The notes below the pieces were generated by a model. That model was not told the origin of the DNA. It did not search any database and worked only from the letters and a program-made list of their open reading frames with translations. From positions 1-64,000 of IMG/VR virus record IMGVR_UViG_3300034031_000046: a stretch of DNA of 64,000 nucleotides; one strand, 5' to 3'. This DNA comes from a virus. Positions 18,294-55,723 of the stretch are shown here, piece by piece; positions within the stretch are counted from its first letter, which is position 1, and every line of letters starts with the position of its first letter. The translations under genes and the position numbers were made by a program.

Positions 18294-18309
18294 GTGCACC
18301 ACAGTGCAC
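18294..18309. promoter_or_regulatory. GTGCAC-CACA-GTGCAC palindrome (variant spacer)
   Basis: Ends 2 nt before the AAGGA RBS of the TerL-like gene. Confidence 0.7.
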
Positions 18310-18320
18310 AAAAGGATTTT

Positions 18321-19841
18321 ATGGACTCTAACTCAACTCGTAGCACCAACTCGCAAGATGCGGCGGCGGAGGAACGCCGCGAAGCATGTCTAGTTGCCGA
18401 ACTTAACGACCCGTATATCCATGTCGTCGGCATCAATTGCTCGGCTGAGGTTCGCCTGCCCTACCTGTTCTCTTCTGATGTTGCGATCGCTCACGCAGTG
18501 GACGGTGTGCTGCAGACACAAGCTGCGATGGAGAAAACCGAACCGCCGACTCATTTTCGGATTTCCCAAAAGGGGCGACCGACCTTCACCTACAAGGTCG
18601 GCTCGTTGGCGAAGAAACGCACTCTCAAGGACTTGCCCATCGCACTGCAACAGGCAGAGCTGCTGAAAGATATTCAGACCGTTTCAAAATCGGATGCGAT
18701 CAAACACGATGACATTCTCCGAATCGACGAGGGCTTTCGCACGATTCGCCAGTCTCTTCTGACTCTGAACGAGGATAGTTCGGCAGAGATAAAAGTAGAG
18801 ACGCCAGCCTCCGACCCGGTCCCCGACAACCCGGTTCCCGAGGCAGCGCCCGAGCAGCCGTCGCTCTCGTATCGCATTGTCAAAGGTCCTGTCATCGTCA
18901 CGCGCATCGTCTCCCCCGCTGAGGCGGAAGAGAAAGAAACTTTTCGCGCGTTCGTCACGCGGGTTCATCCCAAATTCCAGTGGCATAAGCACGCCAACGT
19001 GATTGCCGATGTGCTGCAAAGTGTTGCCGATGGCAGGCGCCAGCGCGTGATGGTGCTGGGCGGCCCGCGCCTTGGACTTTCCACCCTCTCGCGCCTCTTT
19101 TCTGCTTATTACCTGACACGTCATTATCGAAATCACGTCGGCATCTTCAATCCGCCGGGTGAGTTAGCAAGCTACTCTGCAGCACGCGCGCGTGCATTCT
19201 ATGGCGCATCGCTGCAGCAGCCCTTCGAAGGTAAATGGGAAGAAAACAACGCCGGTGGCTTCATTAGGGGATGGGGAGTCGGAGGAGCCCTGACAGGGAA
19301 CAGACTCGACCTTGCTGTTATCGATGCACCGAGCAAAATCAGCGATAGTGAACAAGACAAGGAATTGGTGTACGAGTGGTATCAAAATGTGCTGAGCCTC
19401 CGTGTGGAGGATGCAGGTGCCATTGTCCTCTTTACCCCGCGTCTAACCGGGACCGATCTCGTGGACCGGCTGGCGAATGAGGACGAAAAGAAACTCAAGC
19501 ACGGCGAGCAGGCCGAGCAGTGGCACGTCGTGGAACTGCCCGAAATCGCTGAACGCGAAAAAGCGGTCTATCCGGCCACCTGGACCGTGGAACCGGACTG
19601 GCGTGTGCCGGGCGAACCGCTGCGCACCGACATCGACCTGATGCGCCTGTATTGTAGCCTGGGTCCCGCGAAATTCGCCGCTCTCTATCAGCAGCGACCG
19701 CAGAAGTCTGGGCTGCCGCCGTGCTTGCGCGACTTCATGGATTTTCTGGGAAGCAAAGGTGCTGTCAAACAGCAGGTAACGATTCTGGAAGCAATTGCTG
19801 TCCATCTGGCTACCGGCGCCTTTCTCAACGAGACACGGTAG
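18321..19841 (+). CDS. terminase-large-subunit-like protein (ATPase-domain homologue, degenerate motifs, no nuclease domain evident)
   Basis: VMVLGGPRLGLSTL, LDLAVIDAPSK, IVLFTPRLTGTDLVDRL, WHVVELPEIAE and FAALYQQRP follow the order of TerL ATPase-domain blocks. Lies upstream of the portal. AAGGATTTT-ATG start. Confidence 0.5.
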   Translation: MDSNSTRSTNSQDAAAEERREACLVAELNDPYIHVVGINCSAEVRLPYLFSSDVAIAHAVDGVLQTQAAMEKTEPPTHFRISQKGRPTFTYKVGSLAKKRTLKDLPIALQQAELLKDIQTVSKSDAIKHDDILRIDEGFRTIRQSLLTLNEDSSAEIKVETPASDPVPDNPVPEAAPEQPSLSYRIVKGPVIVTRIVSPAEAEEKETFRAFVTRVHPKFQWHKHANVIADVLQSVADGRRQRVMVLGGPRLGLSTLSRLFSAYYLTRHYRNHVGIFNPPGELASYSAARARAFYGASLQQPFEGKWEENNAGGFIRGWGVGGALTGNRLDLAVIDAPSKISDSEQDKELVYEWYQNVLSLRVEDAGAIVLFTPRLTGTDLVDRLANEDEKKLKHGEQAEQWHVVELPEIAEREKAVYPATWTVEPDWRVPGEPLRTDIDLMRLYCSLGPAKFAALYQQRPQKSGLPPCLRDFMDFLGSKGAVKQQVTILEAIAVHLATGAFLNETR

Positions 19842-19862
19842 AACCTTCGAGATTGCGCAGAT

Positions 19863-19891
19863 TTTACCGGAGAGGGCGCCTATGTTAGAAT
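19863..19891 (+). promoter_or_regulatory. extended -10 promoter (TTTACC-17-TGtTAGAAT)
   Basis: TGn plus TAGAAT, with a 4/6 -35 match, just after the TerL-like stop. Confidence 0.45.
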
Positions 19892-19897
19892 GAGTTC

Positions 19898-20004
19898 AAC
19901 GCCGGTCCTCTCCTCCAACGCTCGTTCCCTCAACCGTTTTTAATCGCATAACCAAATTCAGGCCCGCAGCCGCCCTTTTCACGAAGGGCGGCTGCTTTGT
20001 TTTT
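19898..20004 (+). ncRNA. candidate short CU-rich transcript / leader (about 105 nt)
   Basis: Runs between the promoter at 19863 and the terminator at 19966. Contains CCUCUCCUCC (anti-SD-like). Confidence 0.3.
19966..20004 (+). terminator. rho-independent terminator
   Basis: Perfect 12-bp stem GCAGCCGCCCTT/AAGGGCGGCTGC, 6-nt loop, then TTTGTTTTT. Confidence 0.85.
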
Positions 20005-20040
20005 GGTTTCGTTCTCGGAGTCTTTCCATCGAGGTGCCCT

Positions 20041-20415
20041 GTGAGTCATTTGTTGCACAATCCCCTGTCCCACCGTAACGAAGTTGCCGCCGACGCCCAA
20101 GACCCAACGGTCGAATACATCAGCGAGCACGGTGGCGACCTTGATCTTTCCAGTGCCGACGAAGCGCGTTTGTTGATCGAATACACCGACGGCACTCCGG
20201 TCGCTCCCAGTCTCGTACTGCGCCCGTTCTGGAAGTGGAACGACCCCGAGCCGAAGTTCTACGCCGGTGAAGCGCTCCCGGAGATCACCGAAGTGGGAGC
20301 CTTTGTCGTCTCGATTCCCGCTCTGGGACCGCGCCTGTTCGTCAAGATCGAGACGCTGGACGGAACCACGCCGCGCTGTAACATCCGCGTCGTCCCGGTT
20401 TTCAAGCGTCCCTGA
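20041..20415 (+). CDS. hypothetical protein
   Basis: GTG start with GAGGTG 4 nt upstream, directly after the terminator at 19966-20004. Confidence 0.5.
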   Translation: MSHLLHNPLSHRNEVAADAQDPTVEYISEHGGDLDLSSADEARLLIEYTDGTPVAPSLVLRPFWKWNDPEPKFYAGEALPEITEVGAFVVSIPALGPRLFVKIETLDGTTPRCNIRVVPVFKRP

Positions 20416-20513
20416 TGCACTGCGTCGAAAACAGAATCGATGCTGACCCCACACCGCGCCGCTAGGGCGTGTGCCACCAAGGCGTATGACGCTGCGGCGG
20501 CTACTTTCCATCT

Positions 20514-22958
20514 ATGAGCGAGTCCACCTCTTCTTCGAGCACCAACGCACCAGAAACCAATGCCAACGGAATGATCACGCTGTCCGAGCGTGCGTTCGTC
20601 GAGCTCGCGGCAGGTGCCGAGCGTGCCGGCCAACCCGCGTTGATGGAAAAGTATTTCGACAAGGCGGTCGAGGCCAGTGTCAACGGCGGAACGGCTCAAC
20701 TCGAAATGCCGCGCCACATGATGATGACCAACGACCCGTCACCAACGGGCCACGCGGCAACGGGTTACCCGCAGGAAGTGCTGCCGCGCATCGATCGCGA
20801 TTCGCCCATCGTGAAAGCCATCGTTGCCAATGGCTACAGCCCGCGCCCTGTTCCGTATCGCGTCAACGATGCACTCATGACGCTCGGGCACTACAACGGC
20901 ATTCGCGACCTCAGTCAGGCCACGTCCAAGACGTTCCAGATGCTGAAAAAAGTGAGTGAGTTTCCGCTCATCGATGCCATCATCGGCTACAAGATCGCCG
21001 AAATTGACCCGTTTCTTTCTCAGCCGACCAACAAGAAAAAGTACGGCTTCGAGATTCGTCAGAAGAACCGCAAGGCCCCCGTCACCCGCCGCTCGCGCAA
21101 GCGCTGCGAAGACCTGACGCACCTGATGCTTCACGGCGGCTTCATGAATCTGCCCGACGGCACGCGTCGCTGCCATCCCCAGACCGGTGAGCCCGGCTGC
21201 TGGGATGGTCTGGGGCTGGAAAAGGCCGTACCGCTGCGCCAGTTCGGCGCGAGCTTTATTCGTGACTCGTTTTCGATGGACTGGGCGTGCGCGCGCACCG
21301 AACCGGGTGGCGACCCACGCGCCTATCCCGTGGTGTTTTTTGCTCCGGTCGCCAGCGAAATGATTCGACGCACCGTCCGTGACCGCTACCAGCCCGATAT
21401 GCTGCCCGACGGGACCTTTGTCGAATACGTGGAAATGAATCCCGGCATGGATGGGCGCGTGGTGCGCGAGTTTCCGTGGACGCACATGTTCTCGATGGTG
21501 CGTCGTCCCCGCACCGACTTTTACGGGCGTGGCTATGGCTTCTCGGAAATCGAAGTTCTGCTGCGCGAAATCGCCTCGCTCCAGTTGAATCTCCAGTTCC
21601 AGAAATCGTTCTTTGACGAGAACCATATCCCGCCCGGTTTCCTGCAAATCAACGGCATGCCTGCCGATATCGACGATCAGGCAATGGACGAAATCCGCCG
21701 CAAGTTCTCCCAGTTCGGCGGTCCCGGCGCGATGTGGAAACTGTGGCTCCTGCTCTTCCCGCCTGGCTCGGAAGGCAAGGCCGAGTTCGTCGCAATGCGT
21801 GACCAGATGGGCGCCGTCCAGACGCTGCAATACAGCCTGCAAGGATTCATTCACATTCTGAATATCGTGACCTCAGTCTTCCAGATGAACCCCGAAGCGA
21901 TTGGCTTTGAGGGGCTGAAGATTCAGGCGACGGCACTCAATGGCGAAGACCCCGCCACGGCTCTGGCGCACTCCAACGACAAGAGCCGTATGTCCACGCT
22001 GGGCAATCTCGAAACGCTGTTCACCGAACACATCATCGAACGCTACGACCCCGATTTCGAATTCGGGTTTGTCGGAGCGGAGTCCCACGATCAGAAAGCC
22101 GAGGACGATCATGTTCAGGTTCTGATGTCACGCGGCTTTCCCCAGAACAAAATCGCCGATCTCAACGATGAGGACCATCTCAAAATCGCGCTGCACCCGG
22201 ACCTGTATGATGCCGTTATCGCCGAATGCGACGAAGAAAAGTTCGACTCACCCTCGGACATGCAGCGCCATATCGAAACCGAATACACGAAGCGCTTCGA
22301 AAAGATCGTTGGCACGGTTGAAGAAGGCTTTTCACCTTGGTGCGATTCACCCAATGCACCTACGGGCAATCCCGAGTCGATGAAAATCTACACCGAAAAT
22401 CGGGGCCGCGTCCTGCAGCAGATTCAAACGAAACAGATGCAGGCCAAAATGGAAGAGTTGGGCCTGCCCAAGGGCATGGACCTCCAGTCGGCGCAACAGA
22501 TGCAGGCGATGGGCTACGAGGTTCCCGGTCTGCCCTCGATGCAGCCGCAGGAGGGCGAGGGAGGCGAGGAAGAAGACCCGAATGAATCCGCTGTCCGGTC
22601 CGCGTTTGGTGGAGCCGCACCGGGACAGGCCACAGGACAGGAACCCGGAGGGAAGCAGGGCGCGCAGGGGGGCGCTCCCTCGGGTCAGGCACAGTCGATG
22701 AAGAAACCACCGGCGCTGCCGCCAGCCCTTCAGTCGCTCACCGAACGCCCGCAAGACGAAGACGAAACCGCTGACGACGACAAGAAGGACAAAGGCGGAA
22801 TGCGCCCTCCACGCCCCAAGACTCGCCCGGCGATGACACCGGCGATGAAGCCCACAAAGCGAAGCGCCGCCGCCTCGCTGAAAAAGGCCGAAGACTTTGC
22901 TCCAAACGACTTTGCGTCGGGCGCACGCGTGATTGAAGTCGTAATTCGTCGCTCCTAA
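20514..22958 (+). CDS. portal protein (putative)
   Basis: 814 aa downstream of the TerL-like gene. Central FYGRGYGFSEIE..FDENHIPPGFLQINGM..DEIRRKF resembles portal core blocks. Gly/Gln/Pro-rich basic C-tail. Confidence 0.65.
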   Translation: MSESTSSSSTNAPETNANGMITLSERAFVELAAGAERAGQPALMEKYFDKAVEASVNGGTAQLEMPRHMMMTNDPSPTGHAATGYPQEVLPRIDRDSPIVKAIVANGYSPRPVPYRVNDALMTLGHYNGIRDLSQATSKTFQMLKKVSEFPLIDAIIGYKIAEIDPFLSQPTNKKKYGFEIRQKNRKAPVTRRSRKRCEDLTHLMLHGGFMNLPDGTRRCHPQTGEPGCWDGLGLEKAVPLRQFGASFIRDSFSMDWACARTEPGGDPRAYPVVFFAPVASEMIRRTVRDRYQPDMLPDGTFVEYVEMNPGMDGRVVREFPWTHMFSMVRRPRTDFYGRGYGFSEIEVLLREIASLQLNLQFQKSFFDENHIPPGFLQINGMPADIDDQAMDEIRRKFSQFGGPGAMWKLWLLLFPPGSEGKAEFVAMRDQMGAVQTLQYSLQGFIHILNIVTSVFQMNPEAIGFEGLKIQATALNGEDPATALAHSNDKSRMSTLGNLETLFTEHIIERYDPDFEFGFVGAESHDQKAEDDHVQVLMSRGFPQNKIADLNDEDHLKIALHPDLYDAVIAECDEEKFDSPSDMQRHIETEYTKRFEKIVGTVEEGFSPWCDSPNAPTGNPESMKIYTENRGRVLQQIQTKQMQAKMEELGLPKGMDLQSAQQMQAMGYEVPGLPSMQPQEGEGGEEEDPNESAVRSAFGGAAPGQATGQEPGGKQGAQGGAPSGQAQSMKKPPALPPALQSLTERPQDEDETADDDKKDKGGMRPPRPKTRPAMTPAMKPTKRSAAASLKKAEDFAPNDFASGARVIEVVIRRS

Positions 22959-27834: not shown

Positions 27835-30800
27835 ATGACCGCAACGCCATTTACCCAGACCCGGCAGAACCGTTCCCGACAGGGGCGTCCCCACCCCACT
27901 CTCCTGATTGTCAGCGCTCCCGCCGCCATTCCCGCCGTCACGGCTCCCCAGCTTGTGCACTGCGGTGCACACGAGGAAGAGTTACTCAAAGCGCATCCGG
28001 GTTCGGTCGCGGTTGTCAAGACGCGCCGCGACGGCCACCGCCAGCGCTACTGGACCAAGCCCGACGGCCATTTCTGGATTACGCCAAAAGGGGAATCCGT
28101 CCGCCTCAAGGGCACGCACGCGGGTTTCCTGTCGCGCCGTCGCGATCTGCTCAAGCGGTTCGTGCCCGAATATGATGGCGGTCAGGTCGAGGACCATCAC
28201 ATCACGAAGTTCGCGCAGCGGACGGGATGGGTGCGCGCGCGCCACTGGAATATGGCCGGCCACAACTGGCACTCCTATTCGCTTCCTAACGAGCGGCCTG
28301 ACACCTTCGAAGCCGCGCAGCGCCATCACGAGGAGCGCTACGGCAAGGACGGAGATCCGCCGCTCGTCACCGTTGAACTCGATAACGACGCCATCGACTT
28401 GCACCCCGACGCCGGTCAAAGCTGGCATCGTTCCTATCGCCAGATGAAGCGGCTTCACGGCATGGGCATGGAATGGGGACAGCCGCTCTTTAAAGCGACG
28501 GCGTTGCATCCCAAAAGCGATTACGTGCCCGGAGAGGATTGTCCGCACTGCGGCGCTTCGATGGAACAGGGCGGACAGGCCGATTACGATAAAACACAGA
28601 TGCCGTTGTGTAACTCCTGCGGCAAGGAGTGGCCGGACCCGACATGGTCATCCCCGAGTCTGTCGGGGGATGGTGGTCAGGGATGGCACTGCCCATGGTG
28701 CTCGGAGGTCAACTGCTCCGAAACACCGGAGACGAACCGCTCCTGCTACAAGTGCAAGAAAACCGTCGATGTCATTGACGAGGGCGACAGCCCCTCCGGA
28801 AAGGAGATCTGGCATGTTCATCCGGCACGCCAGCACGCGGGGAAAGACGGCGAAGATATCGCTAAGGCGTTCGCCTCGGGTTATCCGCTTCAGGGGCGGC
28901 GCATGTTTCGTGGGCTACATGTCTCCATTGAGAACCGCAAGGGCCGCTATCGCGTGGACAAGCAGCACGACCCACCGCAGTGGAAAAGCCTGATGTATTG
29001 TGATTACGGATACGTGCGCGGCTCCGAAGGTGTCGATGGCGACCACATCGACGTGTTTGTCGGTCCCAACGAAAACGCGCCGGACGTTTACATCGTGCGC
29101 CAGGTCAACCCGTCAACGGGAAAATTCGATGAGCAAAAGTGCATGCTCGGTTTCGACTCGGCGGAGCAGGCGAAGGCGATGTATCTCAAGCATTACGACA
29201 CGCCGAAATTCTTCGGCGGCATCACCGCGATGCCGTTTGACGAGTTCAAAGCCAAATCGCTCGCCAGTCTGCACGGCGAGAAGTTGCTCAAGGCCGTCGC
29301 GCTACGCGCCCTCTCCCCTGCTCCGTCCACCGCGACAAAGAAGAAAAACAAGGCTGCTGCGCCGGGGGCGAAGCCTACCGCTCCCCGCCAGATCGCCGTC
29401 GTGATTCCGTCGGTGAAACCGGCTGCCGCCAAAGGTGCGACCAAAGGTGCCCTCACCGGCGCCCGCCGCGTCGGTGGCGTTGGGCCATCGCACAAGGGCA
29501 GCAAGTGGATTACCGTGCACGATGCCGTTGAAGTCCATGTACCGCGCAAGGGCCGTCAATCTGGGGCCGTTGTTTCAGCCACTAAAAATCACGTCTGGGT
29601 TTTCACACGTCACGGCACGTTCGAAGCGCCGCGCGCCGAAGTCACGCCACTCAAGCGCAAAGTCACCTTTGACTGGCGCAAGGCATCGCAGGTGATACCG
29701 CACCCCGGAAGTGTCGTCACCGTCCGTCCCCTGCCCGAGTCGCTGCCCGCAGGAATGAAACAGGCGCAAAGCGTGAAGCGCGTTCTGGCCGAACCCATCA
29801 AAAACAAGGGCGCCAACGCGAGCGTGAAAGTGCTCGAAGTTCGTCCCGGTCGCAACGACATGAAAACGCACACGGTGAAGCGGTCGCAAATCGCGGGACC
29901 GTACTTGCCGGACAAGTTCATCGACCCGGTCGAGAAGACGCGCACACGTCGCCGCCCCGACGCCGTCAAGACGAAGTCACAGTTGAAGTCCGAAGCGTCG
30001 AACCTCACCTACGTGAAATATCTCGATGCGCGCGGCCAGAAGAACCTGAGCGAGCGGGAAAACAAATGGTTCGCCAAGCACGAACAGCGCATCGAGGGCG
30101 TAGCACGCGGCATCGCGGCGCGCATGATGATCACCGGAGAAAACGTGCAAGACCTGATTTCCCACGCCAACGTCGGTGCGCTCTACGCCTACCGTCAGTG
30201 GGACCGGGACCGCGCGGCGCAACGGGGCATGAAGCTCTCCAACATGGCCCGCCACGCCGCGATTGAGGCCGGTCTGGATCTCGATTCCGAGGAAGGCAAG
30301 GCGTTCGTCAAAGTCGAAGCCCATCGCCTGTCGAAAACGATGTCGGCGACCGCTCTCCGCGACAAACACATCTTCGCGGGTGCATGGATGGAAACGATGC
30401 GGCGCGCGGACGAGGTCATGGATATCACCGGTCTTTCCGGTATCAACCGCAGCGATATCGGGCGCGTGGTGCGCGCGGAACGCGACCTGTCCGCAGAACT
30501 GGGACGCCGTCCCCTGCCCCGCGATATCGCGAACCGTCTGGGTTGGACGAGTGCAGGCGGTGAAGAAAAGGTACGCCTCTGCCTCGCCAAGAAAATCGCG
30601 CGCGCTGCGTCGCGGATGTCGGAACTGGAACGTGAAACCGAAGGCGGCACCGTATCACCGCAGGACACACTCGCAGCGAAACCCGAGGTCGATGCAGCAT
30701 CCAGCGAACGCGCGGAACAAACGCGCGCAGCGGTGATGCAATTGGGCCGTCTCGCCGGACTCGACGAACGCCAGACGCTGATTTTGCGCGAGGGCCTGAG

Positions 30801-36316: not shown

Positions 36317-36332
36317 GTGCACCGCGGTGCAA
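36317..36332. promoter_or_regulatory. GTGCAC-CGCG-GTGCAA imperfect variant
   Basis: Intergenic, downstream of the putative promoter at 36228. Confidence 0.45.
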
Positions 36333-44885: not shown

Positions 44886-44901
44886 GTGCACTGCGGTGCA
44901 C
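44886..44901. promoter_or_regulatory. GTGCACTGCGGTGCAC 16-mer
   Basis: Exact copy, 20 nt upstream of the ATG at 44866 (minus-strand gene). Confidence 0.75.
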
Positions 44902-48111: not shown

Positions 48112-48127
48112 GTGCACTGCGGTGCAC
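48112..48127. promoter_or_regulatory. GTGCACTGCGGTGCAC 16-mer
   Basis: Exact copy between the minus-strand terminator at 48137-48162 and the sigma-factor start at 48082. Confidence 0.75.
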
Positions 48128-48136: not shown

Positions 48137-48162
48137 AAAAATTAAAGCACCGCAACCGGTGC
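48137..48162 (-). terminator. rho-independent terminator (minus strand)
   Basis: GCACCG/CGGTGC stem, then TTTAATTTTT on the minus strand, after the stop of gene 48170-49153. Confidence 0.55.
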
Positions 48163-48169
48163 GGCTGAA

Positions 48170-49154: not shown

Positions 49155-50141
49155 TCAGGCCGCTTTCCGCAGTGGCTTTACCGACGGGTTGCCTTTCTTC
49201 GCGCGCCGGAATATCTGTTTGCGTGTCCTCTCCGTCGTCAGGTCCTTACGAACACGGGCCAAGTGTTTCTCCAGCAATTCGATTTCGAGAATCGTGCGGT
49301 CGAGGTCATTGCGGCTGAACGCCGACACCACGAGTTGGCAGCGTTTTGCGTCCCAGGTGTCGGAGCAGAGCTTCGTGATTTTAGCGAGCTTCTCTTCAAG
49401 CGTCTGGCGTGCTCGTGCCGCTCGCTTGGCCTGATAGGGTGTGAGCGCGGCAAGCGCAAAAAACGATTGTTGCTGCGTCATGGCCGCTTGTTGACGAATG
49501 GCACTCACGGCAGATCGAAGTGATGTCCCCTTTTGATAGGCCTTAAAAATCGTGTACTGCGCGTGACGCGGAACCGGCATCAGCCGGGACGCTGTCACGA
49601 TCTGATATGCCTGCCCGATGGAGATCTGCCCGCTATCAGGCTCTGGCGCGTTTTGCACCATGCCGCGCAGCATCGGGTGAAGTTCGAGCAGTGCCAGCCG
49701 GTAATCCACATAATCTTTTGTCTTGCCGATAACGGAGGCAATCGTTTCCGTGGTCCAGTCCAAGTTCTCCTTCAACATCTTCCGGTAGGCTTCCGCTTCT
49801 TCCATCGGCTGCGGGTCGTCGCGTTGCACATTTTCAATGACGCCCATCGTAAAGCACTTGCGCTTGGTCGCCTTGGTGATGGAAACCGGAAGCAGCTTGA
49901 GGCCCGCGATAAGGGCCGCGCGGTAGCGGCGTTCCCCGGCAATCAGCAGGTAGCGTCCGGTTGCTGGATTGTAGGAAAGTTTGAGCGGCTGCAAGATTCC
50001 AAACTCTTGGAACGATGCCGCGAGTTGCTGCAGATTACGAAAGCGCTTGCGGTGCTGGTCGATGTCGGGGTCAATCAGTTCTATGGGTAAATGCGGTTGT
50101 CCATCGATTAAGACAACGTGTGGATAAGAAATCGAATTCAC
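49155..50141 (-). CDS. ParB/Srx-family (ParB-like nuclease domain) protein
   Basis: FGILQPLKL..LLIAGERRYRAA..IENVQRDD matches ParB N-terminal boxes. GTG start with AAAGGAG upstream. Confidence 0.85.
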   Translation of the reverse strand: MNSISYPHVVLIDGQPHLPIELIDPDIDQHRKRFRNLQQLAASFQEFGILQPLKLSYNPATGRYLLIAGERRYRAALIAGLKLLPVSITKATKRKCFTMGVIENVQRDDPQPMEEAEAYRKMLKENLDWTTETIASVIGKTKDYVDYRLALLELHPMLRGMVQNAPEPDSGQISIGQAYQIVTASRLMPVPRHAQYTIFKAYQKGTSLRSAVSAIRQQAAMTQQQSFFALAALTPYQAKRAARARQTLEEKLAKITKLCSDTWDAKRCQLVVSAFSRNDLDRTILEIELLEKHLARVRKDLTTERTRKQIFRRAKKGNPSVKPLRKAA

Positions 50142-50172
50142 GTCGGGCTCCTTTCAAATTGGTTTCTTCACC

Positions 50173-50201: not shown

Positions 50202-50223
50202 GCGCGACACAGGTGAACGAAAA

Positions 50224-50234
50224 AGTACGGTCAA
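50224..50234 (-). repeat. near-match half-site (AGTACGGTCAA)
   Basis: One mismatch. Intergenic, next to promoter element B. Confidence 0.5.
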
Positions 50235-50272
50235 CAAACTGTCTGCACTGACCGTAGTTTTTCGCGCTGGAT

Positions 50273-50491
50273 TTAGAGAAGAGCTTTCAGACTGATTCGG
50301 CTGGATTCCAAGATGATGGCCGGCTGCTCGGCTACGATTTGAATGGTTGCAAATGCGTGACAAACTTCTATCGGTGTCATTTGTGCGGCCTTGACGCTGA
50401 CCATCGCTTTATCCGCAATGCCATGGATCACGAGTAATCGCTCTTCCGAGCTCCATGCGTCGCTGATGTTGTCAAATTCTTCAGGGGGCAT
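50273..50491 (-). CDS. hypothetical small protein
   Basis: 72 aa. AAGGAGA 4 nt upstream of the ATG. Confidence 0.55.
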   Translation of the reverse strand: MPPEEFDNISDAWSSEERLLVIHGIADKAMVSVKAAQMTPIEVCHAFATIQIVAEQPAIILESSRISLKALL

Positions 50492-50557
50492 CGTATCTCC
50501 TTTTGTTCGTCTTTATTGTGACAGAGTCCGGTCGAATCCGACCGCCCTTCGCTGTCC

Positions 50558-51685
50558 TCACGCCGCACGAAGCAACTTGCGCTTTTCCTTCTGGTCCTTC
50601 GCTTCCTCTTTCTGGGCGTTCTGTGCCATGAGCCCGCGATATCGCTCGCGTAATTCCTCCGGCTCCGTATAGTCAATCTCCAAGCCGACTGCCGCTGCGA
50701 CACGCTTGCGCACCGTGCAGAGCAGCTTTGCTTCGGCTACCGTAGGAACACAGGTCGGCCAGCCCTTGGTATAGAGCAGGTGCGATGGAATCAATGATTC
50801 GGCATCCTCGCGCTCTTTGGCTTTTTCCTTGGCTCTATCGAGGCGGATGCTAAGTTCAGTGCTCAGCAGCATCGGAGAAACGTCACCAAGCCAGGTATTC
50901 TCCTGAAAACTGAATGTCGATCGCGCCTCCAGTTCGACCATCTCCCGATAGACATCGTGATTGTCGGGACAACTGGCGGACGCCGCCATATCTCCTTTCG
51001 AGGACATGATGCAGAAGGAACACGAAACGCGCGAGGTGCCGTAAATAACATATGCCTCGTGCAGTGGAAAAGACTTTTCTTCCAGATAGCTGAAAATGTC
51101 ATCTTTGAGCCAGCCTGCAATCGGGTGCCAGTCAAGGCCGCGCGTGCCGTGCGTTATGCTGGTGAGCTTGCTTTGCTCTTTGGCCGTTGGTGCTTTGGAG
51201 CGACCGGTACTTTCATCGCGCCGAATGCCTGAAACGGAAAGAATGGTCTGGCCGGGGAACCGTCGAATCAGTTCACGACAAATCACCGCCGTCTTGAGTT
51301 CACTGGTGCAGAACCGCATCGAGGGCGTGCTCCATGGCAGGATGAGCTTGACGCATTCCAGCGCCGCATACCGTGCGACGTTATTATCCCAGCGCACCAG
51401 AAAGCGATCCATCATATCGCCAGCAGCGCGCCGTACAACAATCAGTTCCAGCCCGAGCGCTGTCGCAAGACGTTCGCACGTTGGCAGCGAGTCGCGCCAT
51501 TCGATTCGTCCAAGGTCGCTGTGAACAAGAACGCGCGGGCCGCGATGCCCGACGCTGTCCAGATAGTCATTGGTCGCAAACGCCGCAGCACAACTGTCCT
51601 TCCCGCCGGAAACGCCGATGCAGACTGGTGCTCCCTCATGGAGCAAAGTTTCAATTTCGGGCGTCGATTCGATAGGTAAATTCAT
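50558..51685 (-). CDS. DndC-like / PAPS-reductase-family PP-loop ATPase
   Basis: IGVSGGKDS PP-loop, RFCTSELK, SGIRRDES and a C-terminal SCSFC. ATG with GAGGT upstream preferred over the TTG at 51727. Confidence 0.75.
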   Translation of the reverse strand: MNLPIESTPEIETLLHEGAPVCIGVSGGKDSCAAAFATNDYLDSVGHRGPRVLVHSDLGRIEWRDSLPTCERLATALGLELIVVRRAAGDMMDRFLVRWDNNVARYAALECVKLILPWSTPSMRFCTSELKTAVICRELIRRFPGQTILSVSGIRRDESTGRSKAPTAKEQSKLTSITHGTRGLDWHPIAGWLKDDIFSYLEEKSFPLHEAYVIYGTSRVSCSFCIMSSKGDMAASASCPDNHDVYREMVELEARSTFSFQENTWLGDVSPMLLSTELSIRLDRAKEKAKEREDAESLIPSHLLYTKGWPTCVPTVAEAKLLCTVRKRVAAAVGLEIDYTEPEELRERYRGLMAQNAQKEEAKDQKEKRKLLRAA

Positions 51686-51733
51686 AAGCAACCTCGGGTT
51701 GATTCCCACAGTTTTGAGTACGATCAATGGATT

Positions 51734-51744
51734 TCGACCGTACT
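51734..51744 (+). repeat. TCGACCGTACT half-site
   Basis: Exact 11-mer, upstream of the DndC-like gene. Confidence 0.9.
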
Positions 51745-51791
51745 CTGCACACTTCGCTGTTCCCGCAGTTTTGCGTTGATTTTTCAGACTT

Positions 51792-52154
51792 TTACGCCCA
51801 GCAGCCCAGAGGCTGTTCCAACATCTTCGCGAGAGTTTTTTGCAACTCCTCTTTGTTCTTGTAAGTTGTGGTTTCTTTTTGCTCCCATGTGCAATCGTCG
51901 CCGCTGGGGGTATTGCGGAAATAGCGGCCTACCATCGTCGGCGTAACAACGATGACATGGTCGCCGGGTTCGGTAACGTAGCACGGCGCGACGAAGACGC
52001 GGATGCCGAGGGGCAGACCGGTGTCTGTAAGCGGCGCATTGTCAACCAGTCCCTTCTCGTCGCGATAGCCGAGGCTGAAGCCGCCCGCTTCGAGATAGGC
52101 CGCAATGCGCTCTTCGACCTGTTGCTGTAACGGTGTGAGGTCTTGTCCATTCAC
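51792..52154 (-). CDS. hypothetical protein
   Basis: GTG start with AAAGGA upstream. 120 aa. Confidence 0.5.
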   Translation of the reverse strand: MNGQDLTPLQQQVEERIAAYLEAGGFSLGYRDEKGLVDNAPLTDTGLPLGIRVFVAPCYVTEPGDHVIVVTPTMVGRYFRNTPSGDDCTWEQKETTTYKNKEELQKTLAKMLEQPLGCWA

Positions 52155-52187
52155 GAAAATCCATCCTTTAAACTAAATTTTTTCGAC

Positions 52188-52745
52188 TTAGACGCCGAAC
52201 TTTTCCCTGAAGACAGTGACTTCAGCGGGTGTCAATCCGTATCCGGCGTTGACGCGCTCCATTACCTCTTCAAACGACGGATACACATGCTTTTCGACCC
52301 ACTGGCGATTGCCCTTGGTGTAGGCGTAGCACTGGGAACAAACTCCCGTTTCGCGCACATCCGCTGCTTCGAGAGAGATCGCGTATTTCGTTTGGCAGCA
52401 CGGGCATTGCACCCAGCCATGTTCACGAAAGTCCTGCCACGCTGTATCCCGCGCATGCTGGAGAGCTTCCTTGGTGGGATAAACGGGCCACGCACGAATC
52501 AGCATGAAGCCACTTTCGCGCCGCCAGCGGGGGGCCTGTAGCCCTTCGGCGGCGCGGGTGGCCTGAACGCGTTCATCATCGGACGAGAGCACAAAAAGGG
52601 AATCTGGCTGTGCGGCGCGAATTAGGGCACATCGTTCGCTGCACAGAAAATTGCCCATGCAGGTAAAACCTTCACTGGTTTCGGTCGTGCAGACAACACA
52701 CGGTTCCTTCCGGCAGGCATAGGAGCAGGTTGTGAAATTCAACAT
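52188..52745 (-). CDS. hypothetical Cys-rich protein
   Basis: 185 aa with AAGGA 8 nt upstream. Several CxxC pairs. Confidence 0.55.
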   Translation of the reverse strand: MLNFTTCSYACRKEPCVVCTTETSEGFTCMGNFLCSERCALIRAAQPDSLFVLSSDDERVQATRAAEGLQAPRWRRESGFMLIRAWPVYPTKEALQHARDTAWQDFREHGWVQCPCCQTKYAISLEAADVRETGVCSQCYAYTKGNRQWVEKHVYPSFEEVMERVNAGYGLTPAEVTVFREKFGV

Positions 52746-52782
52746 GAGTGGGTCCTTGGAGTCTGGTCGTATTTTCCGAAAG

Positions 52783-53190
52783 CTAGGCGCGTCGTGCCAC
52801 TCGGGGCCGTCTGGAGACGCGCCGTCGCACGGGCTCGTCTTCGAACCCGAGGCGCAGCCGGTTCTGAGTCAGGCTGATGAACATTTGCATTGGCGGCTTC
52901 GACTTCGCTGCGATGTGAAATTGTTTGACAAGCTCGGGCAGCAGAGGAATGACTTCCTCAGCCGATTCCGAAGCCCCACTGCCAGTACTTGTAGTGTGCA
53001 CCGCAGTGCACCCTTTCGCTCCGCTGTGCAGTGCGAGACGGTCACCCTTCAGCTTGAGGATAAGTGAGGGCTGAGCCGGGTTGCGCTGCACTGAATGATT
53101 CACGACCGCCAGCACTTCGGTTACGGGAAATTTGAGTTTCATAGTTGGTGGTTCCTGCGTGGTTTCTCTTTCACGCCATATTTCGCTCAC
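52783..53190 (-). CDS. hypothetical protein
   Basis: GTGA-coupled start at 53190, or ATG at 53142. Contains the 16-mer palindrome in its coding sequence. Confidence 0.5.
   Translation of the reverse strand: MSEIWRERETTQEPPTMKLKFPVTEVLAVVNHSVQRNPAQPSLILKLKGDRLALHSGAKGCTAVHTTSTGSGASESAEEVIPLLPELVKQFHIAAKSKPPMQMFISLTQNRLRLGFEDEPVRRRVSRRPRVARRA
52996..53011. promoter_or_regulatory. GTGCACCGCAGTGCAC (same 16-mer, opposite strand)
   Basis: Exact reverse-complement copy inside CDS 52783-53190. Confidence 0.65.
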
Positions 53191-53399
53191 AAAACGACTT
53201 CAACGGTGACAACGCCCTGATGCTGTCGGTCGTACTGTTCCTTGAGATAACCGGGGTCGCCGGTTCGCCCGTCGGACTGCGCGTCGTGAGTGAACTCAAT
53301 ATAGCGATCGGGTTCGTTGGTTGTTCCGAAGTCGCGGAGAGAACTCACGGGGCCACGATAGATGGCCCCGTTGCTCATTTTGACAATGACGGTTTTCAT
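53187..53399 (-). CDS. hypothetical small protein
   Basis: AAGGAATTTT-ATG start (MKTVIVK). The longer 53615 ORF was rejected. Confidence 0.5.
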   Translation of the reverse strand: MKTVIVKMSNGAIYRGPVSSLRDFGTTNEPDRYIEFTHDAQSDGRTGDPGYLKEQYDRQHQGVVTVEVVL

Positions 53400-53445
53400 A
53401 AAATTCCTTGAGTGAGATAGGGGTGAGTTGTTATTCGAACGCAGG

Positions 53446-53814
53446 TCAATCGAACGCAGGGCACTCGGGCAGTCGTTCGATTGCGCGCAGCGTGCTCTCG
53501 CGCGCCACCACTTTGCCCGCGATGCGAAGCTCGCAGAACTGTGTGGCCGGATTGTAAATAATGCACTTGTCGGCGTTGCCACGCAGCACAAGGGGAAAGC
53601 AGATCTGCATGACACTTTCCGAAATGCCCCGCAGGGAATAGGACATCGGCACCAGAAACTGCGCGCCGCTGGGAGCGGTGTGGACCCGGCGTCCCTGAGC
53701 CGCCAGAATCCGCACCCCCTTCAATAAACCGTGTCCGATGATGTCGCGCACATCAAACGTTTCTTCTGTCTTCGGACCGGAGTCACAACCGAGCACGCAA
53801 AGATTGTATTTCAT
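53446..53814 (-). CDS. hypothetical protein
   Basis: GAGGGA RBS. 122 aa. Confidence 0.5.
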   Translation of the reverse strand: MKYNLCVLGCDSGPKTEETFDVRDIIGHGLLKGVRILAAQGRRVHTAPSGAQFLVPMSYSLRGISESVMQICFPLVLRGNADKCIIYNPATQFCELRIAGKVVARESTLRAIERLPECPAFD

Positions 53815-53868
53815 GATATTCCCTCGCTTAAAAATTGTTCAACCGGATTGTGGCTCTGCGCTCTGGCT

Positions 53869-54357
53869 TTACCAGACCCCCGCTTGTTTTCGTTCAATCG
53901 TGAAATTGCACTGGTGAATAAACAGCGTGAGCTCGTCGCCGGTGAAGTGCGTAAAACACGTCACATCGCGCATTTGTTCGAGTTGCTCAATGGTGAGTCC
54001 CTTGAGGATCTCATACACCTCGTTCATCACCTCACCGCTCACTGGCGCCGTGCCGATGTGCTCGGAGATCTCGGTTTGCAGCGTTTGAAACAGTTCCTGA
54101 ATCGACGGCGCCAGAACGCCGACTTCGATGGAGGTCGCATCGCGTTTGTGGCGGATCTCGCGTTTCGCACACTCGATATCTTCGTCGGTGTGGTGGCTTT
54201 CGCGAATCAGGCAGAACCAGTAGCCTTCTGAGCCCGAAGGCTCATCCATGAACACCACGCCATTATCGGTGATGTTTTCGAACCTCTTCAATCGGTCGTA
54301 CTCCTCTCGACTGATTTCCCGCACCTGCTTCCCGTCGATTGATATGAACCTAGACAT
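53869..54357 (-). CDS. hypothetical protein
   Basis: Start MSRFISIDGK overlaps the upstream stop. GAGGAGAAGG upstream. Confidence 0.55.
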   Translation of the reverse strand: MSRFISIDGKQVREISREEYDRLKRFENITDNGVVFMDEPSGSEGYWFCLIRESHHTDEDIECAKREIRHKRDATSIEVGVLAPSIQELFQTLQTEISEHIGTAPVSGEVMNEVYEILKGLTIEQLEQMRDVTCFTHFTGDELTLFIHQCNFTIERKQAGVW

Positions 54358-54550
54358 TGGCCTTCTCCTCAAGTTTTTCTTGGGCGAGCGTGGTGATGCG
54401 CTCCCAGATTTTCGCGCCGAAGATGCTGGTCGCGCGCTGGCGCTTCACAGCATCTTCGAAGGACAAACCGTTCTGACGCACCGACCAGAGAATGCTCTGG
54501 ACGTGCTGCTCGATTTTTACTTCCGTCGCTTTTTGCATATCGTCTCGCAT
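54350..54550 (-). CDS. hypothetical small protein
   Basis: First gene after promoter element C. Start MRDDMQK with GGGGGA upstream. Confidence 0.5.
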   Translation of the reverse strand: MRDDMQKATEVKIEQHVQSILWSVRQNGLSFEDAVKRQRATSIFGAKIWERITTLAQEKLEEKANV

Positions 54551-54571
54551 GATTCCCCCTGTAAATTCATC

Positions 54572-54600
54572 GGTACGTAGATCGGCGGGCATTTTGACAA
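54572..54600 (-). promoter_or_regulatory. leftward promoter-like element C
   Basis: 21 nt upstream of the ATG at 54550. Near-identical to B and D, including the flanking CGATGAA. Confidence 0.6.
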
Positions 54601-54612
54601 CGGGCGGTATTG

Positions 54613-55434
54613 CTAAAGCATCGGAGGCCGCTGCGTCGGGAAGTTCAGGCGATCAAGCAGCGCCGTGAGTCCTTCGGTCGTGGCGAAGCAAATCCCCTCG
54701 TGTTCTTTCTGTCCTGCGTTCGCGGTTTCCCATCCCTGCGCGCGAAGCGGGTGATAGTAGAGGCCGAGGCGGTCCGGTGAGGGTGGGACATAGCGCGTTA
54801 CGATACGCCCGTTCCAGTGCCAGAAGTCTTTGCCCCAGTGCCACAGCAACTCGTTGTCTCCGCGCGTGCACAGATCGGACGGCTGGCGCAGGAACCAGTG
54901 GTAGCGATGGTCTTTGGTGAGCGAGGTGTACCAGTCGCTATACCACGTCACGGTCGTGATGCTGGGCACCACGTCAATCGAGCGCAGATGGAATACGGTC
55001 TTGAGCAGATGGGACACGGCATCGAGCACACCCTCTTTTCCCATCCTCCCGCAGGAGAAAGATTCGACCGGCTCTTCATCGATGATAACCAGCCATTCGT
55101 CGCCGCCTTCCACCTGGTCGATGAAGCAGACGTTGCGCCAGTAGAACGGCTGTCCCACGCACCAGTAGGGGCTCTGGAGAATCCGGTCCACCATCAGGCC
55201 GATATCTGTGTACTCCGCGTTGCGAAACGAGTCCCGCGTGAACGGTGGGTCGCTAGCCTTACGAATCGATGGTTTGCTCATGCCGATGCGGAACCACGCT
55301 TCGACCAACTCGGAGCGACGGTTGGAAGAGGGTGTTTCGGTATCGGGGACAGACGCCAGAACCGGGGCCGTTACCGACGCTGCAGGCGCTGTTGGAGCGA
55401 GGTCATTTTTCAGTTGGGCAATTGATGTAATCAT
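54613..55434 (-). CDS. hypothetical Trp-rich protein
   Basis: First gene after promoter element D. AAGGAG 8 nt before the ATG (MITSIAQ). Confidence 0.55.
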   Translation of the reverse strand: MITSIAQLKNDLAPTAPAASVTAPVLASVPDTETPSSNRRSELVEAWFRIGMSKPSIRKASDPPFTRDSFRNAEYTDIGLMVDRILQSPYWCVGQPFYWRNVCFIDQVEGGDEWLVIIDEEPVESFSCGRMGKEGVLDAVSHLLKTVFHLRSIDVVPSITTVTWYSDWYTSLTKDHRYHWFLRQPSDLCTRGDNELLWHWGKDFWHWNGRIVTRYVPPSPDRLGLYYHPLRAQGWETANAGQKEHEGICFATTEGLTALLDRLNFPTQRPPML

Positions 55435-55462
55435 TGAAATTGTCTCCTTGGTTTTCTTCATC

Positions 55463-55491
55463 GGTACGTAGGAAGGCGGGCATTTTGACAA
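55463..55491 (-). promoter_or_regulatory. leftward promoter-like element D
   Basis: 28 nt upstream of the ATG at 55434. Divergent from the rightward consensus promoter at 55508. Confidence 0.6.
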
Positions 55492-55507
55492 AGCGCGAAA
55501 AAATTGC

Positions 55508-55536
55508 TTGACAGCACGCGAGGCCGCCTCTATAAT
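55508..55536 (+). promoter_or_regulatory. sigma-70 consensus promoter TTGACA-17-TATAAT
   Basis: Perfect -35 and -10 hexamers with a 17-nt spacer, in the divergent control region. Confidence 0.75.
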
Positions 55537-55542
55537 TGAAGA

Positions 55543-55698
55543 CGTATAGCAAGCGCGTATAGCTGTTTTAATCGATTTCGTTTCACCTCGTCGTTACTCC
55601 ATTCAGGTCAAGGCATCATGAAATTTTAATTTTCAACTCGTAATTGCATAATTGGCCCGCCGCCGCCCTTTCACTTCGAAGGGGCGGTTTTTTGTTTT
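55543..55698 (+). ncRNA. candidate short leader / small RNA (about 155 nt) from the consensus promoter to the terminator
   Basis: No ORF above 3 codons with an RBS. More AT-rich than its surroundings. Bounded by the promoter at 55508 and the hairpin plus T-run at 55663-55698. Confidence 0.45.
55663..55698 (+). terminator. rho-independent terminator
   Basis: CCGCCCTT..AAGGGGCGG stem followed by TTTTTTGTTTT. Confidence 0.75.
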
Positions 55699-55707
55699 CC
55701 AGTTGTT

Positions 55708-55723
55708 GTGCACTGCGGTGCAC
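55708..55723. promoter_or_regulatory. GTGCACTGCGGTGCAC 16-mer
   Basis: Exact copy 10 nt after the leader terminator and upstream of the late structural genes. Flanks extend the symmetry (GTTGTGCAC..GTGCACACAAC). Confidence 0.75.

Follow-up and report, generated by a model that had tools for sequence, protein, structure and literature searches.

A dispersed 18-bp palindrome in an uncultivated phage genome is most likely a docking site for a DNA-binding protein of the phage

The window (the whole stretch of DNA analysed, 64,000 nucleotides) belongs to the 139-kb genome of an uncultivated phage, of which 83.4 kb were scanned and which carries at least 10 copies of a palindrome with two GTGCAC arms. 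The copies and the features next to them are as follows.

3550..3565: imperfect copy GTGCACCGCAGTGCAG, one arm mismatch, within a 233-aa gene (3343-4044, +)
14893..14908: perfect 16-bp palindrome GTGCACTGCAGTGCAC (18 bp with its T/A flanks), within a 355-aa gene (14719-15786, +)
18294..18309: copy with a CACA spacer, intergenic, 2 nt past the stop of the upstream gene (18291), 2 nt ahead of AAGGA and 11 nt ahead of the ATG (18321) of a TerL-like gene
27955..27970 (+): exact copy, codons 41-46 (V-H-C-G-A) of a 1055-aa polyvalent protein (27835-31002, +)
36317..36332: imperfect copy GTGCACCGCGGTGCAA, in a 599-bp gap without genes, about 50 nt 3′ of a TTGACA-type promoter-like site at 36229
44886..44901 (+): exact copy, in a 56-bp gap separating minus-strand genes, 8 nt ahead of AAGGAG and 19 nt ahead of the ATG at 44866, 6 nt away from a copy of a second repeat, TTCGACCGTACTTTTT
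48112..48127 (+): exact copy, with a terminator-like hairpin on one side and the ECF sigma gene on the other, 18 nt ahead of AAGGA and 29 nt ahead of the ECF sigma ATG (48082)
48147..48165 (-): that terminator-like hairpin with its T-run, which ends the ParB operon 19 nt upstream of the site at 48112
49155..50141 (-): ParB/Spo0J/Noc-family protein, 328 aa, the candidate binder, with a GERRYRA CTP box, an ENVQR box and an HTH_ParB domain
52996..53011 (-): exact copy on the opposite strand, within a weakly supported 119-aa ORF (52783-53142, -)
55508..55697 (+): sigma-70 promoter matching 12/12 consensus positions (55508-55536), leader and strong terminator (55662-55688 plus T-run)
55708..55723 (+): exact copy, in a 554-bp divergent gap, beginning 11 nt past the T-run of the leader terminator and 266 nt ahead of the first head-module gene (55989); a one-base bulge lets its flanks lengthen the palindrome (GTTGtT...ACAAC)
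69545 in window-equivalent numbering (L003:21312): tenth site, 5.5 kb past the window end

The five exact copies of GTGCACTGCGGTGCAC reported in a preliminary description of this DNA were all recovered by a scan of the window, for which shuffled sequence gave 0.00, and when only the two arms were held perfect (GTGCAC-N4-GTGCAC) the count rose to 7 against 0.01 expected, bringing in the spacer variants at 14893 (TGCA) and 18294 (CACA) that had been listed with them. The two imperfect copies, at 3550 and 36317, indeed differ by one arm mismatch each, which makes nine sites in the window. Extending the scan to 83.4 kb of the same genome added the site at 69545 and no eleventh, and for all 10 sites together the expectation is below 0.01. 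GTGCAC on its own is neither enriched nor avoided (33 observed, 31 expected), and just one further full palindrome is repeated, three times in all. The sites are spaced more evenly than random (CV 0.54, P=0.036).

The same description had recognised the dyad but missed its true unit, which is the 18-bp palindrome T-GTGCAC-YGCR-GTGCAC-A, assembled from two TGTGCACYG half-sites (TGTGCACTG nine times and TGTGCACCG seven times). The 16-mer forms a 16/18-bp dyad, its apparently non-palindromic TGCG spacer being a T/C heterodimer of half-sites, and the spacer classes TGCA : TGCG/CGCA : CGCG occur at 2:6:1, the outcome expected if half-site position 7 is a Y. The dyad is of even length (8+8 bp), like parS and NBS, and its perfect form spells G-TGCA-C-TGCA-G-TGCA-C; each arm is its own reverse complement, as are about 1.6% of hexamers. 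The 18-bp motif holds 27-29 bits, roughly twice the 13-14 or so needed, and among the sites compared no conservation extends past position +/-1. Near-invariance of this degree is usual for parS and OB sites and also argues against a mobile element.

The sites favour the gaps between genes: 6/10 are intergenic in the 8.5% of sequence that lies there (P=6e-5), three are in well-supported genes and the fourth genic one is in the weak 119-aa ORF. They stand at module junctions, ahead of the TerL-like gene, the ECF sigma gene and a 179-aa gene and in terminator-adjoining leaders, and this position makes a regulatory protein-binding site a reasonable reading. The distances to ribosome-binding sites (RBSs) given earlier, and the placement of the 55708 copy relative to the late-leader terminator, were all correct on recheck, but the statement that the element usually lies just upstream of an RBS went too far, as only 3/10 sites adjoin one. 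Of the roles proposed for it at regulatory nodes, the DNA operator holds up as reasonable on the intergenic enrichment, whereas the RNA-level alternatives are weakened.

The motif is probably recognised as DNA by a protein. Its orientation relative to transcription is mixed across sites, both arm variants disrupt the outer pair without a compensatory change, and an intrinsic-terminator T-run is absent from every copy; together these observations favour DNA recognition over an RNA hairpin. The transcript loops also vary by site (UGCG three times, CGCA three times, UGCA twice, CACA and CGCG once each; n=10), and with the uncompensated arm variants and the three or four coding copies this costs the translational-operator and processing-site readings ground. 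The most likely role is that of a docking site for one of the DNA-binding proteins of the phage, with ParB as the leading candidate. The element is of an ordinary kind.

ParB is the candidate at hand, and from its sequence and setting we tentatively suggest that the element is a ParB loading or operator site of the KorB kind. The protein scores 97 bits in TIGR00180, above the cut-off of 58, and aligns with Spo0J (1vz0) at 2.7e-27 across residues 15-226, HTH included; it is of chromosomal type with CTP box and HTH intact, and it lies 1 kb from one site. Missed in the preliminary description, it belongs to a protein class that requires a site of just this sort. Its recognition region in the Spo0J alignment reads GKTKDYVDYRLALL where the canonical ParB has GKARSTVANALRLL, and no canonical parS or NBS is present, so that the phage ParB must use another site. 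No other palindrome-binding protein is recognisable in 83 kb, where the only Pfam DNA-binding domains are that of ParB and the sigma domains. The mixed orientation and the occurrence in both coding and intergenic DNA were also counted for ParB, and the four closest-spaced sites (44886-55708) bracket parB, albeit with marginal significance (P about 0.06). No ParA gene adjoins parB, and neither a ParA nor a KorA-like partner was recognised in the genome examined; lysogeny or plasmid genes were likewise not seen in the 83 kb.

In such a scheme dimers of the phage ParB/Noc-family CTPase would bind the 18-bp dyad through their HTH domains, close into CTP clamps at the palindrome and spread onto adjoining DNA from roughly 17 entry points genome-wide (an extrapolated number). 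Their occupancy would dampen or insulate transcription into the modules, like KorB from the OB operators on plasmid RK2; dampening is proposed because most sites stand at module entrances, and it would affect the TerL-like gene, the ECF sigma gene, the head leader and the tail-tube leader. We infer that ParB would be the binder, that it would slide, and that the outcome would be transcriptional control and not partition.

Some of the same evidence counts against ParB. The intergenic enrichment is atypical of chromosomal parS, and a half-site model leaves the self-complementary arms unexplained; they would fit small dimers binding in tandem, for instance ribbon-helix-helix repressors. It is possible, if somewhat doubtful, that some other phage regulator, as yet unrecognised, uses the sites as its operators. 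This could be a small repressor of the ribbon-helix-helix or HTH type that sits as a dimer of dimers on the pair of GTGCAC boxes, which are separated by one helical turn, and that acts where modules begin, by repression or as a roadblock, in a palindromic analogue of the stoperators of mycobacteriophage L5. Besides the enrichment between genes, three sites lie 2-18 nt from an RBS in apparent operons with no sigma-70-like promoter near, and the centres of the hexamers are 10 bp apart, as fits tandem dimers. About 70% of the phage proteins lack a recognisable domain, so that an unseen repressor is quite possible, and the minus-strand block holds many small ORFans (66-135 aa) without a Pfam match. 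However, no candidate protein was identified, three or four sites lie within genes, the set is more invariant than most repressor operator sets, and stoperators are asymmetric and transcription-oriented, which the phage sites are not.

A transcript hairpin with a 6-7-bp stem and a 4-nt loop, which would stabilise upstream mRNA, bind a translational or antitermination (boxB-like) factor or mark processing, is unlikely. Every copy does fold as had been predicted (about -9 kcal/mol for the bare hairpin), three adjoin an RBS and two are in terminator-adjoining late-operon leaders. The palindrome grows to 26-28 bp at 69545 (folding z-score -5.1) and gains 4 bp beyond a bulge, with different flank sequence, at 55708, and the plus-strand loop C(UGCG)G is a UNCG-type tetraloop. 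That form, however, occurs in 3/10 sites only, the stem is invariant and does not co-vary, 8/10 of the 46-nt contexts fold no better than shuffles (|z|<2), there is no Rfam match, and a 6-bp stem is a weak exonuclease barrier. Lacking a U-run, the copies are not terminators.

Another DNA transaction is also an improbable explanation: the enzymes encoded next to parB, activated by ParB, might modify the DNA sequence-specifically at the palindrome, the sites might be nicked as in T5 or phiKMV-like phages, or the palindrome might serve replication or packaging as a structural cruciform signal. The gene block of ParB does also encode a DNA methyltransferase and two proteins resembling PAPS reductases, with weak similarity to DndC. 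Activation of DNA-modifying enzymes is known for ParBs of phages (PMC13229309), and members of the ParB superfamily work together with the modification systems Dnd and Dpd (PMC12839542); the precedent for a phage ParB as an enzyme activator, given the neighbours of ParB here, counts against site binding. The even spacing and an information content within the range of restriction-type sites would also agree with such a transaction, but modification motifs are usually 4-6 bp long and much commoner, GTGCAC shows neither enrichment nor avoidance, and a modification or nicking target would not predict intergenic enrichment.

The multi-copy palindrome was found nowhere else in IMG/VR, among the metagenome matches listed or in GTDB species genomes, and no close relative of the phage was found; four head-module relatives lack the motif and, within +/-10 kb of their capsid gene, also ParB, the sigma factor, the PAPS-reductase-like genes and the methyltransferase, a joint absence that was counted in favour of ParB. 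That the copies are functionless (chance, assembly artefact or recent neutral duplications) is scarcely credible: although no relative could show conservation and the three assemblies holding the sequence are 100% identical, chance predicts none, two independent samples and assemblers gave the identical sequence, the intergenic bias is strong, and the flanks are unrelated, so that duplication of longer segments does not account for the copies.

Among known systems, the phage ParBs that activate 5-methylpyrimidine dioxygenases (PMC13229309) are likewise ParA-less and adjoin genes of DNA-modification type. They have no obvious DNA-binding domain or known specific site, whereas this ParB keeps its HTH, and no TET/JBP domain was detected in the neighbours of its gene. 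In mycobacteriophage L5 the repressor gp71 reportedly binds stoperators, many near-identical short sites dispersed, like those here, through a phage genome in short intergenic gaps and transcribed regions. They are thought to stop transcription running through; in contrast to the palindromic phage sites of mixed orientation, which have no known repressor, they are 13 bp long, asymmetric, transcription-oriented and recognised by an immunity repressor that acts as a monomer. The linear plasmid-prophage N15 is said to carry dispersed SopB centromere sites, which share with our element several 16-bp inverted-repeat copies scattered among phage genes; a protein of the ParB type binds them and, as a side effect, influences the expression of phage genes, the binder in our phage being a candidate. 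N15 differs in its SopA (a ParA), its plasmid-prophage lifestyle and its only four sites, and SopB is of a different ParB subfamily.

The parS and NBS sites of chromosomal-type ParB and Noc CTPases are multi-copy in B. subtilis, V. cholerae chromosome 2 and Burkholderia replicons. They share with the phage element an even-length 16-bp palindrome, about ten near-invariant copies over tens of kb in genes and gaps, and a ParB with CTP box and HTH encoded among the sites. The phage sequence is unrelated to TGTTNCACGTGNAACA, however, and is set apart by its self-complementary arms, its strong intergenic bias, the lack of a ParA and a phage host in which no lysogeny or plasmid genes were seen in 83 kb. 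Plasmid RK2 has 12 OB sites, identical short palindromes dispersed over a mobile genome near to or far from promoters, like those described here, and loaded by a ParB-family CTP clamp, for which the phage has a candidate. OB is an odd-length palindrome of 13 bp (TTTAGCSGCTAAA), KorB partners KorA/TrbA and the ParA homologue IncC, none of which was recognised in the phage, and the phage ParB is much closer to Spo0J and Noc than to KorB (2.7e-27 vs 1.6e-8). Acting as a ParB-CTP clamp, KorB represses promoters from scattered OB sites (PMC11790492), a system that serves global gene silencing in RK2 and for which we tentatively propose an equivalent in the phage.

Five exact copies of GTGCACTGCGGTGCAC, the 16-mer GTGCAC-TGCG-GTGCAC, are present in the window as the preliminary description reported (plus strand at 27955, 44886, 48112 and 55708, minus strand at 52996), and none arose in 100 dinucleotide-preserving shuffles. 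With the spacer left free, GTGCAC-N4-GTGCAC occurs 7 times against an expectation of 0.01, which takes in the variant-spacer copies at 14893 (TGCA) and 18294 (CACA), and the two imperfect copies at 3550 and 36317 carry one arm mismatch each. All coordinates and distances to ribosome-binding sites (RBS) in that description were correct on re-checking; its wording that the element lies 'usually' just upstream of an RBS is too strong, as three of the ten sites now known abut one, at 2–18 nt. The wider genome scan that it proposed was made on 83.4 kb (∼60%) of the genome, put together from neighbouring loci (window coordinates −9948 to 73470), and yielded ten sites in total, the tenth at window-equivalent 69545. 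In this the element resembles parS-, NBS- and OB-type sites, which are likewise short dyads repeated several times, nearly unchanged, on a single replicon.

The window comes from a metagenomic contig of 139,401 bp (ENA ERZ27253121:k141_478499). Because window positions 1–10428 cross the two ends of that contig, the ∼139.3-kb genome must be a circle or a circular permutation. Logan assemblies from a second run are 100% identical and so hold no divergence information. The virus is a tailed phage, as indicated by its TerL-like, portal, major head and tail-tube genes:

18321–19841, TerL-like gene
20514–22958, portal
58234–59766, major head protein
just beyond the window end, tail tube

No relatives were found among 50,697 GenBank phages (megablast, tblastn) or in IMG/VR (searched with the capsid protein, with the sigma factor and with the closest capsid relative), a word-indexed protein search returned the phage itself (twice) and nothing else, and 1.8 billion cluster representatives yielded no capsid relative above 41% identity. 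Four distant relatives share the head module, and the motif is absent in all four, as are ParB, sigma factor, PAPS-reductase-like and methyltransferase genes near their capsid gene. Multiple copies were found nowhere else in IMG/VR, in GTDB species genomes or among the metagenome matches listed: IMG/VR holds two single matches for the exact 16-mer and four for the degenerate pattern, GTDB species genomes hold four singletons for the 18-mer, and metagenomes hold at least 120 single matches for the exact 16-mer, none of those listed being related to the window (blastn, tblastx). A literature search on GTGCAC repeats in phages gave nothing relevant.

The genome has several other features of note. 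There are two terminase-like genes, and the product of the second has PHROG terminase matches only and none in Pfam. In the 1055-aa polyvalent-type protein an InPase domain (2.3e-40) is accompanied by weak matches, under curated cut-offs, to sigma-70 region 2/3 and FliA-like sequences between residues 757 and 990, and the protein might serve as an injected or virion-packaged sigma-like module. A metallophosphatase gene lies just upstream of the window. A relative (L134) has an IS605 OrfB/TnpB-type gene inserted in its structural module at 12553–13758. Three hexamer palindromes are absent from 74.2 kb (window −4450 to 69766), namely CCCGGG (0 against 15 expected), AAGCTT (0 against 17) and CAGCTG (0 against 6); this looks like host restriction-site avoidance and may hint at host R-M systems.

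∼9.3–9.9 kb upstream of the window start (1–657 of neighbouring locus L140), 604-aa Terminase_6N protein
18321–19841, 506-aa TerL-like protein
4885–10206 (+), RNA-repair-like cluster: HD_4 phosphohydrolase, SNF2 helicase, HAD_SAK_2 ('Swiss Army Knife' RNA repair), RNA ligase with OB domain
27835–31002 (+), 1055-aa polyvalent-type protein
37268–38659 (+), BCS1-like AAA ATPase (BCS1_N 1.2e-29)

Aligning the ten sites gives the consensus T-GTGCAC-YGCR-GTGCAC-A, an 18-bp palindrome. Nine of the 20 half-sites are TGTGCACTG and seven are TGTGCACCG, the rest being four single variants. With two acceptable half-sites, the seemingly non-palindromic TGCG spacer is simply their T/C combination, and the spacer classes TGCA, TGCG/CGCA and CGCG occur at 2:6:1, near the expected 1:2:1. 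Each GTGCAC arm is in addition self-complementary, and the site in its perfect form is G-TGCA-C-TGCA-G-TGCA-C. The 18 positions hold 27–29 bits of information, while ∼13–14 would specify ten sites in 83 kb, and conservation stops at position ±1 of the palindrome. Together these values mean that recognition by the binder must be very strict, and the lack of conserved flanks means that the copies do not derive from a longer stretch that was duplicated or mobile. Two further sequences resemble the element, an 18-bp perfect palindrome containing GTGCAC (AGCCCGGTGCACCGGGCT, 18251–18268), 26 nt upstream of site 18294, and, within gene 55989–56918, a degenerate copy (GTGCACGCGGTGCGC, 56226–56240) that has a 3-nt spacer and a T-run after it.

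Using the gene calls supplied with the contigs and our own for 37–48 kb, the 83 kb are 91.5% coding, and still 6 of the 10 sites are intergenic (binomial P = 6e-5):

18294, stop codon 2 nt before, TerL-like ATG 11 nt after
36317, in a 599-bp gap, ∼50 nt past a TTGACA-type promoter-like site
44886, 19 nt from the ATG at 44866
48112, flanked by the terminator-like hairpin closing the ParB operon on one side and by the ECF sigma gene on the other
55708, in the head-module leader, 11 nt past the T-run of a terminator with a perfect TTGACA-17-TATAAT promoter ahead of it
69545, 4 nt past an 828-aa gene's stop codon, ∼75 nt before the terminator preceding the tail-tube gene

Sites 3550, 14893 and 27955 are inside well-supported genes, all in frame GTG-CAC, and 52996 is within a weak 119-aa ORF. 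The sites are spaced a little more evenly than at random (CV 0.54, P = 0.036), and the four closest-spaced sites bracket parB, all ≤6.1 kb from it (P ∼0.06), both being weak statistics.

Other putative control elements occur in the phage. A second, commoner repeat, TTCGACCGTACT(C/T)TT, has 18 matches to its 9-mer core, mostly intergenic and in either orientation (16–38, 4046–4062, 4433–4449, 8393–8420, 10205–10220, 14469–14482, 18072–18084, 24934–24950, 27731–27745, 37123, 38770–38786, 44908–44923, 49132 and 51733–51748, and outside the window at −8265, in L140, and 64106). It occurs three times as a full palindrome, TACGGTCG-N3/4-CGACCGTA, at ∼8.3-kb intervals (−8265, 17 and 8396), runs directly into an ATG at 4049 and 4436, and has one copy 6 nt from site 44886. 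A similar palindrome, ATCGAGTACTCGAT, is present ∼12 times at gene junctions in a relative (L131), and the repeat may serve as a promoter or operator throughout the clade. A ∼35-nt conserved element, TTGTCAAAATGCCC-N5/6-CTACGT(A/T)CCGATGAAG, lies on the minus strand at 46959, 50191, 54590 and 55481, 37–80 nt ahead of four genes of that strand, among them those for the methyltransferase and ParB. The genes of the minus-strand block probably share it as their promoter type, and its core GTCAAAATG has five copies in the corresponding block of another relative (L128). Finally, a leader/terminator module (AATYGCATA box, GGCCCGCNGCCGCCC...GGGCGG hairpin, T-run) precedes the portal, head and tail-tube operons, and two of its three copies have a sigma-70-like promoter ahead of them, that of the 55508 copy being a 12/12 match. 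This placement suggests that expression of the late genes relies on antitermination or on promoters lying beyond the leader/terminator insulators.

19863–20005, leader/terminator module
55508–55697, leader/terminator module
69621–69682 (window-equivalent; 21388–21450 of neighbouring locus L003), leader/terminator module

Several familiar identities for the GTGCAC palindrome could be rejected. Its geometry, read straight from the sequence, is not that of a sigma-70, sigma-54 or ECF promoter: compared with sigma-54 elements (−24/−12; GG-N10-GC, TGGCAC-N5-TTGCA) it has TG in place of GG and TGC one base out of register, its hexamers are 4 nt apart and not the 16–17 nt needed for an ECF or bipartite −35/−10 promoter, and at 18294 the motif ends so close to the ATG (18321) that there is no room for a −10 plus leader. 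Restriction-site avoidance or enrichment of GTGCAC is not seen (33 observed, 31 expected), and a HIP1-type repeat is excluded as GCGATCGC is not enriched. The unconserved flanks, together with the single chance matches that are all that IMG/VR, the listed metagenome matches and GTDB species genomes contain, exclude a mobile repeat (MITE/REP). The motif is likewise unrelated to canonical parS (TGTTNCACGTGNAACA) or NBS, neither of which occurs in the 74.2 kb scanned, the best parS-like matches there having 3 mismatches and lying elsewhere; this comparison rules out canonical parS for the motif and leaves room for a private specificity.

A candidate binder is encoded on the same replicon, within an accessory block of the minus strand:

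44923–51727 (−), accessory block: PAPS-reductase-like protein (389 aa, weak DndC similarity), ParB, 327-aa ORFan, ECF sigma factor, 172-aa ORFan, DNA methyltransferase (383 aa), second PAPS-reductase-like protein (268 aa)
49155–50141 (−), ParB/Spo0J/Noc-family protein, 328 aa
47513–48082, ECF sigma factor

The accessory block is missing from ±10 kb around the capsid gene in the four relatives, and the 327-aa protein encoded downstream of ParB has no PDB sequence match and gave an unusable single-sequence AlphaFold model (pLDDT 34). The candidate binder has ParB_N (2.9e-18) and HTH_ParB (1.7e-10) domains, scores 97 bits against TIGR00180 (cut-off 58), aligns with Spo0J 1vz0 (2.7e-27) across the CTP-binding domain and HTH, and has intact GERRYRA and ENVQR boxes. 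Judged by these matches it is a genuine chromosomal-type ParB, so that a ParB with CTP box and HTH shares a replicon with the sites, as for parS, NBS and OB. Its recognition region differs from that of canonical ParB, and its homologues elsewhere are ≤46% identical and mostly chromosomal. To our knowledge, all characterised members of the class (ParB, Noc, KorB) load at a short palindrome. Within the 83 kb, Pfam, NCBIfam, PHROGs and precomputed domain lists reveal only two kinds of sequence-specific DNA binders, ParB and sigma factors (the ECF sigma and the weak sigma-like segment of the 1055-aa protein), and only two full palindromes are repeated in the sequence, the GTGCAC dyad and TACGGTCG-N3/4-CGACCGTA (three full copies).

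We therefore tentatively prefer, as a possibility short of even confidence, that the palindromes are loading or operator sites for the phage's ParB clamp, which would control the entry of transcription into gene modules much as KorB does from OB on RK2. The family of sites, with its symmetry and placement, and the character of the ParB are observations, whereas the identity of the binder and the effect of binding are inferences. Several observations weigh against this reading. No ParA/CbiA-type or KorA-like partner was matched in the called genes of the 83 kb, the strong intergenic bias is unlike that of chromosomal parS, the self-complementary arms would fit tandem small dimers better, and ∼70% of the proteins are ORFans, among which a repressor could hide. 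ParB also adjoins two PAPS-reductase-like genes and a methyltransferase, and some phage ParBs are enzyme activators instead of site binders (PMC13229309). In an extended version of the clamp model, which we regard as a long shot, a ParA-less ParB CTP clamp would enter at private, self-marking palindromes every 3–14 kb and spread over phage DNA only. There it would gate transcription into the packaging, sigma-factor, head and tail modules, or restrict modification to phage DNA, sparing that of the host, by carrying or activating the neighbouring PAPS-reductase-like and methyltransferase enzymes, or do both.

The copies might instead be operators of an unrecognised repressor, palindromic 'stoperators', an explanation that we consider somewhat unlikely. 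As with stoperators, many copies occupy short intergenic gaps within transcription units. However, a stoperator is expected to be asymmetric with a fixed orientation, whereas the element is palindromic and its spacer orientation relative to gene direction is mixed. No repressor-like domain was recognised among the scanned proteins, most of them ORFans.

Recognition at the RNA level has also to be weighed, as a hairpin of about −9 kcal/mol can form at every copy and the palindrome is extended by flanks of differing sequence at 69545 (26–28 bp, z = −5.1) and 55708. However, the loop in the transcript differs between sites (UGCG three times, CGCA three times, UGCA twice, CACA and CGCG once each), so neither loop nor orientation is constant as in a regulatory RNA, and the arms are invariant without co-variation, both arm variants (3550 and 36317) simply losing the outer pair. 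Rfam gave no match at gathering score in the whole window. An intrinsic terminator was rejected, as there is no U-run on the transcribed strand and nine of the ten sites have no T-run after them on either strand (A-runs follow and T-runs precede). The only one of the ten listed by a terminator consensus scan is 18311–18292 (−), antisense to the local genes, and together with the missing T-runs elsewhere this means that no copy terminates a local transcript. The element is thus probably read as duplex DNA, and it is distinctly unlikely that even some copies act as an RNA hairpin. That the element is a target of modification or nicking, or a structural signal, is improbable, and copies without any function are scarcely credible.

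Under either a ParB or a repressor, the palindrome and its binder would form a compact, highly specific protein–DNA pair with potential as an orthogonal tool. Should an unknown repressor be the binder, the element marks the control points in a 139-kb phage whose lineage has no cultured or catalogued relatives and provides an 18-bp bait to fish out the regulator. If it loads ParB, it would offer a simple, testable viral ParB-CTP clamp without ParA and a possible link to recently described ParB-dependent phage DNA-modification pathways, and KorB-style long-range sliding-clamp control would extend from plasmids to phages; a ParA-less clamp with private sites would, if true, put the ParB-parS principle to new use in a virus. 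As the evidence stands, the genome is unusual but the element in it is of an ordinary kind, a dispersed palindrome resembling an operator, and dispersed, highly specific palindromic protein-binding sites in mobile genomes are a kind already well known. The likeness we propose is to KorB-OB of RK2 (PMC11790492), where transcription here would likewise be gated from the sites of a ParB-family clamp.
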